The notes under the pieces: generated by a model | What the model was told of the DNA's origin: nothing | Seen by the model: the letters and a program-made list of their open reading frames with translations, nothing else | Databases searched by the model: none | In this document: positions 35,523 to 63,580 of the stretch, one piece after another | Layout of the letters: every line of letters begins with the position of its first letter | Position numbering within the stretch: position 1 is the first letter of the stretch | DNA from: Octopus vulgaris | Taxonomy: Eukaryota | NCBI GenBank assembly: GCA_951406725.2 | Contig: OX597816.1 | Coordinates: forward strand, 22,010,001 to 22,074,000 | Reading direction: 5' to 3' | Length of the DNA stretch: 64,000 nucleotides | Made by a program: the position numbers and the translations under genes

Positions 35523-35800
35523 TTAACCACTACGCTATATGCCCACGGGTGTATGGGGTAGTGGTTAAGAGTTCGGGCTACAAATGCCAAGATTACGAGT
35601 TCGATTCCAAGCAGTGACCTGAAAGATAATAATAATAATAATAATAAAATCGAAAAACACCTTAGGAATGAAAACCCAGGTTCAAAATTTCCCCAAGACA
35701 CCTGAAGAAGGCTGGGGGGGGGGTATATCAGCCGAAAGGTTGTGTTAACAAACACGATGAGGACATATCATTCGACGGATATTTGTCATCATCTTGTTAC
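35523..35800 (+). mobile_element. tRNA-headed, hammerhead-bearing SINE-like element (family H1)
   Basis: Head GGGTGTATGGGGTAGTGGTTAAGAG...GAGTTCGATTCC (35547-35608), (AAT)n, HHR at 35697-35746; inverted copy of the head at 35523-35544. Confidence 0.8.
35697..35746 (+). ncRNA. Type-I hammerhead ribozyme motif (family H1)
   Basis: GACAC CUGAAGA A GGCUG-loop-CAGCC GAAA GG UU GUGUU. Confidence 0.75.
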
Positions 35801-36339
35801 GTAAGACACTTCTTTCACTCAGGGGAGCACTATTTCAAAGAACGGATTTCACTTTCCACAGCACAGATTCTCTCTCTTCCTCACGCTCTTTTACACTCAC
35901 GAGCAAACACACATACACACACACACAAACACAAACAAACTAACTAACACTCACACACACCCACACACCTCTTTCATTGGGAAGTAAATTGAACTTAAGA
36001 ATAATGCTTAGGGATCACAATTAAAGCTTCCGGATACACTACAATTAGAATCGTTCCTGTAAGTAAAAGATTTCCCCGGAACTAAGAATATCTGGTTTTT
36101 GGATTTGGTTTGCAAGATCCTTTATATGATTTCGTGTGTTGAAGTATATTCTGTTGTGTCTGGGGAGAGTCCTTTTCTTTTTGTGCCTTATAATTTAACA
36201 CACTCACCGCTAAAATTTCCACTTCTTTCTTTATTTTTTCCTAAAAATTTTCCTAGTCAAGACTATTCAAAAGGTTGCAAGATGTAACGAAGAATCAAAA
36301 AGTAAACTGAAGTGACGACAAATAGTTATGCAGAGACTT

Positions 36340-36870
36340 GAATTAGGTTTCTTTGGTCATACATACTAAGTTCCTAGCAACTGTGGTGTTTTGGGGAGAC
36401 GTCACAACGAAGGAATTGTCCTGATTCCTCAGATCGTTTTGTCCACTGGGCTTAGGAATCAATGCTGCTGTCCACACAGCAGTGTCAAAAAAGTTATGAA
36501 GCCTTGGATAAACAGAGTTCGCAATAGACACCCATAAATATTCCAGCGAGACTCTTCACCGTCTCATAAGACTAAGACTAGCCAGGCGTGTACGTGTGCC
36601 AATCTCAATAATCATGTTACTCTAGACACATGGTTTCTTAGCTCACCAGACCCCATTCTACTGCACGCTTACGTGTGGGGTTTAGTCGAGAGAGAGAGAG
36701 AGATAGATAAATCAGCACATCCATGGCACCATATGATCTCTCAAATCCGCCATAACTAGTACTGTGTCCAAAATTGATAAAGATCATTTGATTCAGGCAT
36801 GTCATCGCTTCCGACACTGTATTGAAGCAACCATTTATGCTAACAATAAATTCATTGAATATATGTGATA
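36340..36870 (+). pseudogene. Tc1/mariner (DD37D/maT-like) transposase relic
   Basis: TKFLATVVFWG..CPLGLGINAAVH.. and LKSAITSTVSKIDKDHLIQACHRFRHCIEATIYANNKFIE; frameshifts and a (GA)n insertion. Confidence 0.7.
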
Positions 36871-37149
36871 AAAGCATTTCAAAGATTATGTGAACTATTT
36901 TGTTTTCAAACAGCTTTCCTTTGATGAATTATGCGTCCTCTTCTAAACTCATACTAACAATCTCACTAAAACGATGCATCCTGTACGCTGCGAGAATATA
37001 AATACATTCGAGAAAAACAAAAGGTATATAATTACGTTTGCATAACGTCGTGCGAAGCGATGTAATCGATGTTTGAGTTTCTATTAGTATCTGCATTTTA
37101 AATTTTTTACCATCTTCAAGACTACGATTATACTATGGCGAACAGGCTT

Positions 37150-37553
37150 ACTCGCACTCTTATTTGTTTCAGTCATTTGACTGTGGCCATTCTAGAGCAT
37201 CGCCTTTAGTCGAGCAAATCGAACCCAGAACTTATTTTTTGTAAGCCTAGTACTTATTCTATCGGTCTCTTTTTGCCGAACCACTAGTTACGGGGACGTA
37301 AACACACCACATGCGGTTGTAAAGCGATATTTGGGGGACAAACACAAACACACAAACGCGCACACACATACACACACACACATATATATATATATATATA
37401 TGTATACGACGGGCTTCTTTCAGTTTCCGTCTACCAAATTCACTCACAAGGATTTGGTCGGTCCGAGGCTATAGTAGAAGACACTTGCCCAAGGTGCCAC
37501 GCAGTAGGAATTAACCCGGAACAATGTGGTTGGTAAGCAAGCTACTTATCACA
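37150..37553 (-). mobile_element. tRNA-derived SINE family A
   Basis: Reverse complement of the family A body; extreme 5' end missing. Confidence 0.9.
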
Positions 37554-38543
37554 ACAATAAGTAATTACCAGTTAGTATTAATTGGTTGGTAGCTACTCAC
37601 GAATTATTGTAAAATGTAATTTGATAAAAGATATCCTAGCCTTGATTTCCCCGAAAATATGGATTTCCCCAAAAATCCACCTTACTGCAAGTTAATACAA
37701 AGAATGACTTAAGACTGAGTTTGAGATACAAACAGTGTAAGAAACAACTTTCTCCAGCTGAGACATGTGAAGCGCACAATCCCTTGAAGAAATTAACATA
37801 TATGAACTTTTAATGAATTCAGACAACCGCAGAGTATGCAACTGAGTTTTGAACGGCAGCAAGGTTAATCTTAATGCAGTTGTGCATACATTATATCGGT
37901 ATGATAGAAAGTAAGTGAAAGCAAAGATATGCGTACCAGGTTTGTTTTATGGGAAAGTAAAATGTAACATATTCAAAAATTCAATTTTGCCTACATGTCC
38001 AAAACGACGCGGCATTTCATTGACATACAACGGAGTAATCAAATATTTTCACTGTCATACAATGGAATAATCTGGTATTTTCAAGTTCTAAAGAATACAG
38101 GAATGGAGAAAAACGGTGTATGTTGCATACGTGTACAGGACCGTTAGTTAATCTGATGTCTATGACTTTTAGTTAATCTGATGTCTATTTAAATTTCAAA
38201 TAGGAGTCTTTTGCATCAGCTTACCATTATATAAATAGCACCTGAAAAACAACGAATTTACAAAGACAATCGATTGGATAAGGTAGCATTCAGATAGTTG
38301 AAACGTGTGCTTACAAAATCTTGTTTTTCTTCGAATATATATGAGCAACTGCTTAACATATTTCGTCCTTTATATGTTGTGGATTTTACCTTAATTATCA
38401 TAAAGATTTACGATGGCAACTTTTGATTCCAACACAATATATCACATAATTTTAGTTCTTCAGTCATGAGACGAGTTATTTATTATCTCATGAGTGAAAG
38501 ATTTTACCATTATGGATTTATATTTCCATATATAATTCTGGGT

Positions 38544-61841: not shown

Positions 61842-62095
61842 GGAGGCGCGTGGCTTAGTGGTTAGGGTGTCAACGCTATGATTGTAATTGTGTGGTTTCG
61901 ATTCCTGGACAGGGCGACGCGTTGTGTTCTTGAGCAAAACACTTCATTTCATGTTGCTCCAGTCCACTCAGCTGGCAAAAATGAGTAACGCTGCGGTGGA
62001 CTGGCTTCCCATCCAGCTGGAGAACACATACGCCATTGAAACCGGGAAACCGGGCCCATGATCCTGGTTAGGCTTTAAAAGGGCGCACTGATTTT
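61842..62095 (+). mobile_element. tRNA-derived SINE (family C-related head, different core)
   Basis: GGAGGCGCGTGGCTTAGTGG A box, GGTTTCGATTCC B box, CCAGTCCACTCAGCTGGCAAAAATGAGTA core. Confidence 0.85.
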
Positions 62096-62564
62096 TATTT
62101 AAAAAATACAATAAAAAGATAACAAAAATACATGAATACGGCATTTGTTCAAATAATATCCAAAGTAACTTTATCTTGCGTTCTTCGTGTGAAACCATTA
62201 GTGCGAAACACTTGTGACTTGGAAAAGTCTGACCACTTAAATTGCGATTCGGTTTCGAATCACTGCTAAAAGCCAATTAGGCCTTATATATATAAGCGCA
62301 CAAAATTATGGTCAAAAACTCCTTTTAAAAACTATAATGTGAGAATAATATTATATGAACATCATTGTAGGTACAGCTTTTTACCTACGTCTTCTAATGA
62401 AATGAATGAAATTAAATTGTGCCATGTGTCTATAATATCATCTTTTAACTCTTTCTGTATCTCATGTGTGTGTGATCGTTTGTATGTGTTTTTAAGTCGT
62501 TGTTCATTCCTGATTAATGCAATTCGGATCGAATAGAACTAATGAGTTTCTTTAAAAATATCGG

Positions 62565-62775
62565 TTTCAAATTTTAGCACAAAGCCAAGTGTTTCGGAGA
62601 TGGGGTGGAAGACGATTACATCGAACCTAGTGCTCAGCTTATACTTATTTCATCCACCCACGAAAAGATGGAAGGCAAAGTCGACCTCGACGTAATATGG
62701 ACAAAATGCTACGAACAGCCGGCTCTGCTTCCTAGGCATTCTGCTCTGCGTCCTAAAACTTTTTCCACCTCGCCA
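62565..62775 (-). mobile_element. SINE family B, diverged
   Basis: GAAGGCAAAGTCGACCTCG core in reverse orientation. Confidence 0.7.
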
Positions 62776-62814
62776 TCTTAGGTTATTTACTAATATTAAT
62801 TGAGGGAAATTGAA

Positions 62815-63580
62815 GGTGGTGATCTGACAGAACTTTTAGCATTCCACAAAAAAAAATGCTTAGCGGCATTTCGTCCGTCTTTACGTTCTGAGTTCAAATT
62901 CCGCCGAGGTCCACTTTGTCTTCGGTATTGGTAAAATAGGTACCAAATGAGCACCAGTGTAAATAATGTTTTATTGTTTAGAGATGGGGAATTCTGTACA
63001 TTATTTACATCAGATGGATATGTGTCCTCATCTTCTTTGTTGTTAACACAAAGTTTCGGCTTATTTACTCTCCAGCTTTCATCAGGTGTCCTTCTAGAAT
63101 CTTGAACCCAACCCTAGCTTCTCATTCCTAAGGTATTTCTTTTTTTGCTGAATGCTATTATTATTATTATTATTATTATTATTGAAAGCACTACCTGGAA
63201 TTGAACTCAGAATCATGGGGTTAGTAGCCCTCGCTCTTACTCATTACGGGCATATAGCATGAGGGTTAAGAGCGCGGGCTACTAACCTCAACCTCAAGAT
63301 TCTGAATTCAATTCCAGATAGTGCCTTGAATAAATAATAATAATGATAGTAATAACATCAGCAAAAAAAAAAAAAATACCTGAGGAATGAGAACCCAGGT
63401 TTGGGTACAAAATTCTACCAAGACACCTGATGAAGGCTGGAGAGTAAATCAGTCAAAATTTTGATGTAATAACAAACAAAATGAGGACAAATATACGTCC
63501 AATGTAAATAATGTACTGGTGTCGATGTAATCGACTTACCCGTTCGTCGAATTTGCTGGCCTTATGTTCAAAATTCGAAC
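62815..63580 (+). mobile_element. SINE family B copy interrupted by an H1 inverted pair
   Basis: 5' part to GAGCACCAGTGT (~62960); resumes ACTGGTGTCGATGTAATCGAC at ~63515. Confidence 0.75.
62961..63514. mobile_element. Head-to-head inverted pair of family H1 (tRNA head/HHR) elements
   Basis: Left arm (-) HHR at 63045-63090: GACAC CUGAUGA A AGCUG..AAGCC GAAAC UUU GUGUU. Right arm (+) head GGGCATATAGCATGAGGGTTAAGAGCGCGGGCTACTAACC and decayed HHR at 63422. Confidence 0.82.

Follow-up and report, generated by a model that had tools for sequence, protein, structure and literature searches.

We analyzed a 64,000-nucleotide stretch of the Octopus vulgaris genome (contig OX597816.1, positions 22,010,001 to 22,074,000; here called the window), in which an earlier reading of the letters alone, the original prediction, had proposed a short interspersed nuclear element (SINE) that joins a tRNA-like head to a hammerhead ribozyme. 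Judged from sequence, the repeat is real but misnamed: it is a Penelope/Poseidon variant with what appears to be a tRNA-type promoter in its pseudo-long terminal repeat (pLTR). We postulate, with a probability of roughly 0.6, that the unit is the pLTR of a Penelope-like element (PLE), that its head, bearing A and B boxes, likely serves as an internal RNA polymerase III (Pol III) promoter, and that the transcripts are likely reverse-transcribed from inside the start of the open reading frame (ORF), giving rise to both short and full-length copies.

The unit and its coding partner

A search for an autonomous PLE with a matching pLTR recovered an element that encodes a reverse transcriptase (RT) and a GIY-YIG endonuclease and carries the unit. 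The mobilization by Penelope RT/GIY-YIG that the original prediction had suggested is directly supported, since a partner exists and the entire unit is common to both. Several of the 30 best matches to the tail extended upstream of the head into the GIY-YIG coding end, and a consensus of 49 fragments has a single frame of 836 codons with RT, a GIY-YIG/CCHH domain at the C terminus, and no zinc-finger linker. The frame opens at an ATG just 3' of the (AAT)n spacer, continues across the hammerhead and the TGTAAATAA repeats, and ends 29 nt 5' of the next head, so that the ORF stop is followed in turn by 29 nt, the head, (AAT)n, the ATG, the hammerhead, the tail, and the remainder of the ORF. In a profile search, RVT_1 scored above its cut-off on one natural copy. 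The GIY-YIG/CCHH end was read by eye from the motif CVYSIPCSCGRLYKGET and two later histidines, and the Pfam GIY-YIG profile gave no score on the partner.

The unit had been described as lacking an ORF, and indeed it has no long frame of its own; from the ATG in CCTTAGGAATG onward, however, it consists of the first 45 to 55 codons of the Penelope ORF. With the frame opening again 5' of the ribozyme, what was called the "tail" is coding sequence. The N-terminal peptide that spans the ribozyme recurs in a relative (45% identical over 260 amino acids), which argues that a frame reading through the ribozyme is no artifact.

Among 30 copies anchored at the ORF start, 15 ran through the whole ribozyme of a direct-orientation upstream unit, and 5 reached the head, 2 of which extended into the preceding ORF end; in these copies the pLTR is a partial tandem. 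Since this unit frequently sits immediately upstream of full-length copies, it is almost certain, as far as sequence can tell, that the head-(AAT)n-hammerhead-tail unit is the pLTR of an autonomous Penelope/Poseidon element. The SINE label is unsupported because the head lies within the 3' untranslated region (UTR) and pLTR of a coding PLE and no diagnostic substitutions mark the short copies.

All 30 top genomic matches examined belonged to the partner's own family, with no second close Poseidon family among them, and a search for closer relatives with DNA found none in viral contigs and two weak matches in prokaryote genomes. Related proteins were found at 52 to 66% identity, without DNA context, and the Protein Data Bank (PDB) returned only weak matches to group II-like RTs. 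The relatives at about 52% identity cluster with proteins of the barnacle Amphibalanus amphitrite, the others being at 57 to 66%. Horizontal transfer among marine invertebrates is possible.

A 24-mer from the ribozyme has 5,559 exact matches in the 2.8-Gb genome (reversed control, 0), and copies are about 5 to 10% diverged. An alternative hypothesis is that the short copies, although derived from the pLTR, make up a genuine SINE lineage dependent on the PLE: Pol III would transcribe these copies themselves, and they would be re-mobilized in trans. The short copies carry their own boxes, exceed ORF-linked copies by about 4.6 to 1 in word counts, and are less diverged (4.9% versus 6.8%, in a biased sample). 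Long-ended copies reach ORF position +160, near the +172 required by the anole protein (PMC11167929; this and the other sources cited below were available in part, and statements about them refer to those parts). However, no diagnostic positions split 58 short from 26 ORF-linked heads, albeit in a small and biased sample, an A/G polymorphism at head +64 is present in both classes, and run-off of reverse transcription at the RNA 5' end, as set out below, would already explain the short form. We consider a separate lineage unlikely. No 3' flank other than the ORF continuation was common among 69 copies, a test that does not discriminate between the models because internal priming copies no flanks under either. 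A clear target site duplication (TSD) was found in 1 of 22 insertions tested (L002, 21 bp), a weak test since most of these insertions are inverted.

The tRNA-like head and the transcription start

The A box (positions 8 to 18) and B box (positions 53 to 61) of the head lie at tRNA spacing. Compared with host tRNAs (Arg, Ala, Thr, Cys, Lys, Glu, and one Ser-like gene), the head shares 49 of 73 positions with tRNA-Arg (z of about 7.5), and its cloverleaf is decayed. The proposed tRNA likeness thus holds for box spacing and alignment, on which it is based; it does not extend to detection by ARAGORN or Rfam, neither of which called a tRNA on the window loci (for Rfam, among the matches listed). 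The head also resembles the heads of other host repeats (41 to 45 of 66 identities). One of these, a tRNA-headed repeat on the minus strand at window positions 32099 to 32174, matches at 45 of 66, and repeats of this type could be the donor class of a captured promoter.

The 5' ends of copies concentrate at the head. Of 30 head-anchored copies, 24 end within 7 nt upstream of +1. Among 55 ribozyme- or tail-anchored insertions, 23 have their 5' ends at -7 to +4 (17 of the 23 at -3 to +4), 28 are truncated within the unit, and 4 were scored further upstream, 2 of them by chance matches. Exact-word counts are 643 at -142, 696 at -31 to -8, 3,187 in the head (with a pattern that permitted CpG wobble), and 5,559 in the ribozyme. 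Two ORF-bearing copies start at head -2 and +4. This boundary is probably a transcription start, and we favor Pol III, with less assurance, as the polymerase that makes it. The A and B box pair is absent from a distant Poseidon family that has the ribozyme.

Runs of four T residues (T4) end Pol III transcription, and most of the host tRNA genes listed are followed by such runs. The sense strand of the element has 0 T4 in 2,694 nt, versus 30 runs of four A residues. The absence of T4 from the ORF had a p of 0.021 to 0.027 under codon permutation and 0.002 under a third-position draw. Individual copies have a mean of 0.4 T4 per kb, at dispersed, private positions (no site has T4 in more than 3 copies), compared with 2.8 per kb in a control PLE, the family at window position 22129, which has 5 T4 where 4.6 are expected. 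The three controls had 5 T4 in 2,010 nt, 3 in 1,878 nt, and 3 in 1,707 nt.

Several observations weigh against Pol III. First- and second-order Markov models give probabilities of 0.08 and 0.23, respectively, of finding no T4, and the T4 signal is accordingly modest. The other two controls also fall below their null expectation: a long interspersed nuclear element (LINE) has 3 T4 against 4.8 expected (p of 0.24), and the distant Poseidon family without the head has 3 against 6.3 (p of 0.05). In three raw RNA runs searched at 85%, reads from the two strands were about equal, and depth fell along the ORF as contig depth does; no start peak was present at +1 in these runs, whose data are uninformative on this point. 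Among copies, conservation of the A and B boxes does not exceed that elsewhere in the head; neutral copies would be expected to show this, and it lends no support. An intact ORF was seen in no copy. Pol III RNA is uncapped and usually short (PMC10886601, and established knowledge), so translation of a 2.5-kb ORF would need an unusual route. Finally, a hairpin from -14 to +10 (-11.6 kcal/mol, z of -2.6) and a TATA-like word, TATAAG, at -34 could give the boundary without Pol III. The LINE used as a control is a decayed reverse transcriptase (RVT_1) at window positions 52222 to 53271.

The hairpin and the TATA-like word both figure in an alternative explanation, in which the head is a captured tRNA or SINE fragment without promoter function and the element is transcribed by RNA polymerase II (Pol II), either from TATAAG, whose spacing is plausible for Pol II, or from an internal TATA-less promoter as in Drosophila Penelope. 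The likeness of the head to those of other host repeats (45 of 66) fits this explanation, as do the borderline significance of the T4 absence and the one PLE promoter that has been dissected, that of Drosophila Penelope, which is LINE-like and overlaps an intron (PMC2377424). The 5' boundary would then come from Pol II initiation, or else from stopping or folding back at the hairpin, and perfect apex fold-backs do occur at locus A of the window and at three further loci (L019, L021, and L028). On the other hand, the hairpin's 5' arm is missing from the 17 of 23 boundary ends at -3 to +4, and a hairpin in the RNA would be expected to halt RT at around +10, not at +1. Moreover, the stop codon is followed by the head after only 29 nt, the pLTR joints listed from the RNA runs include none of splice type, and the position of the start agrees with that expected from an A box at +8. 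Both the Pol II origin of the transcript and the corresponding account of the boundary seem improbable to us.

With Pol III as the preferred polymerase, we speculate further, at somewhat less than even odds, that Pol III, acting at a tRNA-type promoter which the element has captured, transcribes the coding element end to end (about 2.9 kb); the ORF would be held free of T4, its translation would do without a Pol II cap, and the 5' leader would be shed as thousands of SINE-like copies. If true, a SINE could be born from its own partner, and the element would be an animal case in which long Pol III transcription and translation independent of a cap could be tested as they occur in nature.

Inverted copies, the ribozyme, and the window loci

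Head-to-head inversion, claimed for every locus, proved frequent rather than universal: 21 of 27 ribozyme-anchored insertions (from 30 loci, 3 of which were left out because each was the other arm of an insertion already counted) and 19 of the 30 anchored at the head were inverted, the remainder being solo. Sampled insertions were solo or head to head, a few had an extra partial arm, and tandem arrays of the short unit were rare. The 3' ends of copies form two groups about 30 nt apart. Among 86 sequences examined, 52 contained a head-to-head pair, and 47 of these 52 combined one long with one short end, where 50% would be expected (p of 4e-10). Inversion at the 5' end with a 30- to 40-bp tail at one end only fits the PLE pattern in these 47 pairs, since a one-sided tail and 5' inversion are general PLE features (PMC8557442). 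In vitro, the protein of the anole Poseidon element cleaves both strands of the target and extends them, and its RT starts at two sites within the ORF start without needing ribozyme cleavage (PMC11167929). The inversion geometry is ordinary PLE behavior, and the one-long-one-short rule is sharper than stated in the available parts of these two papers. The cause of PLE inversions is left open in the literature cited, as far as it was available; the 47-of-52 rule provides genomic support for two-strand, two-site priming behind them, whatever the polymerase.

We propose the following mechanism. A transcript would start at the head, with Pol III as the initiating polymerase, and run through the ORF into the next unit. 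By analogy with the anole protein, the element's protein would cut both target strands and prime each at one of two ORF sites, at about 125 to 135 and 155 to 165 nt, and we infer that the two cDNAs then grow toward each other and join head to head. Priming in the first RNA unit would run off at the 5' end and leave a short "SINE" copy, and priming in the second would leave a truncated or full-length element. Such run-off would account for the short form without a second lineage. The ribozyme would cut inside the ORF, would need a dimer or help from protein, and would be dispensable for insertion.

The consensus ribozyme has a type I hammerhead core with stems I and II and a palindromic ACGU as stem III, through which two copies are predicted to pair when cofolded. 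The original prediction placed a hammerhead at each locus, whereas all five ribozyme copies in the window depart from the intact consensus, two of them by loss of G12; Rfam returned no hammerhead match in the unit among the matches listed. Nor is a role for self-cleavage in forming the unit supported, because 15 of the 30 ORF-start copies cross the ribozyme and the short unit spans the cut site. We also rejected cleavage as the origin of the unit ends: the predicted cut site (position 82) is inside the unit, and 0 ORF-start copies begin at positions 59 to 100 of the ribozyme segment. Of the 30 ORF-start copies (L066 to L095), nine begin at segment positions 101 to 128, a second 5' boundary 20 to 45 nt past the predicted cut site.

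The repeat is present at the three window loci where it had been reported (A, B, and C below), which share the head, (AAT)n, CCTTAGGAAT, hammerhead core, and tail at 68 to 84% identity. The reported head-to-head inversions with differing junctions were confirmed as well. At locus A, an inverted stub of the head (+1 to about +23; 35522 to 35544, minus strand) folds back on a TGCCC-AC-GGG apex at 35545 to 35546. The plus strand then carries the tRNA-like head (35547 to 35622; A box at 35554 to 35564 with one change, B box at 35597 to 35608), the (AAT)n spacer (35627 to 35648), and the Penelope ORF start (35668 to 35768), with its ATG at 35668, a type I hammerhead at 35697 to 35746 whose stem III is decayed, and a partial tail. 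A fold-back of the tail follows on the minus strand (35769 to 35798), a feature absent from the original prediction, and a 13-bp TSD-like pair with one mismatch flanks the insertion (35508 to 35520 and 35797 to 35809).

Locus B has its junction at about 41267, within the B box. The inverted arm (41036 to 41267, minus strand) runs from the B box onward to a long 3' end with the tail extension; the sense arm (41268 to 41738, plus strand) also starts in the B box and has an expanded (AAT)n/(AAG)n tract, a hammerhead core at 41634 that has lost G12, and a short 3' end. Locus C, which sits inside another host repeat, joins at about 63247 an inverted arm (62968 to 63247, minus strand) with a long 3' end and a hammerhead core at 63078 to 63085 to a sense arm (63248 to 63514, plus strand) that begins at head +1 and has a B box at 63304 to 63315, a hammerhead core at 63427 without G12, and a short 3' end. 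The A/B-box head ascribed to every locus is therefore overstated: locus B has no A box, and the boxes at loci A and C are decayed. The anticodon-like loop, given as CTACTAA, reads CTACAAA at locus A.

Other repeats were noticed in and beyond the window. The PLE at 22129 to 25130, with which the repeat had been said to share its geometry, was rejected as the partner: it is a different family with a pLTR of its own and none in common with the unit. This separate, younger family (best copies 97 to 98% identical) has a Cys-rich linker before the endonuclease, and its 3' UTR contains CACGTG, CCAAT, and GGCGCGAAA words, which we take to resemble a Pol II promoter. A near-perfect inverted pair at 11023 to 11258, with a hammerhead-like core (CTGATGA...GAAA) on each arm, probably represents a pLTR from another PLE family. 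A further repeat, present in two copies (29513 to 29720 and 31000 to 31220) that are inserted in (AT)n tracts, has a hammerhead-like core on the minus strand. Elsewhere in the genome, seven tRNA-Cys-like genes, two with altered anticodons, lie within 3 kb (L176, G000:C12:25267077-25270148).

Comparison with known systems

As in tRNA-derived SINEs, the head of the octopus unit is tRNA-like and contains A and B boxes, and the 5' end of the unit is sharp. Unlike them, the unit has no LINE tail, its 3' part is PLE coding sequence, and evidence for a separate lineage is absent. Octopus SINEs were reportedly described by Ohshima and Okada in 1994. Automated annotation may file pLTR units of this kind as SINEs.

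No comparable element is described in the available parts of PMC4209133, PMC8490949, or an octopus repeat annotation (PMC13282606), and the accessible main text of the last makes no mention of ribozymes. In the full-text literature searched, mostly through titles and abstracts and outside subscription journals, Repbase, Dfam, and SINEBase, we found no PLE with a tRNA-type promoter. [quoted passage not shown] In terminal repeats, such promoters are described for non-autonomous TRIMs only (PMC10886601). The TRIMp3 elements Cassandra, Helenus, and Ajax have a small-RNA-derived Pol III promoter in the terminal repeat, as the octopus element appears to; all of them are non-autonomous LTR elements, whereas here the autonomous element itself bears the promoter-like head. 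The autonomous partners of TRIMs have been argued to need Pol II and not to share the repeat (PMC10886601).

Non-LTR retrozymes (bioRxiv 10.64898/2026.07.22.740005; PMC7761336) are likewise pLTR-derived short units with a type I hammerhead that are thought to depend on PLEs. They are defined by head-to-tail tandem arrays and circular RNA, whereas the sampled octopus insertions are solo or head to head, and no tRNA head is described for them in the parts available.

PAc of Anolis (PMC11167929) matches the octopus element in its single ORF with RT and C-terminal GIY-YIG, its partial-tandem pLTR, a ribozyme cut site that falls within the start of the ORF, 3' ends of two kinds that define a tail of about 30 nt, and 5' inversions. 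The two differ in that no tRNA-type promoter is described for PAc in the accessible text, and in the placement of the ATG, which is about 35 nt 5' of the ribozyme core in the octopus element but at stem II in PAc.

The schistosome Sm-alpha and Sj-alpha repeats (PMC6765202) have a Pol III-type promoter followed by a hammerhead, as the octopus unit appears to, and in both cases the cleaved unit would bear the promoter at its 3' end. Those repeats are non-coding and tandem, with no autonomous partner named in the portion available, whereas the octopus unit is part of a coding element, is dispersed, and occurs mostly as inverted pairs. If the coding element is transcribed end to end by Pol III, it would suggest a possible origin for Sm-alpha-like repeats that combine a promoter with a hammerhead.

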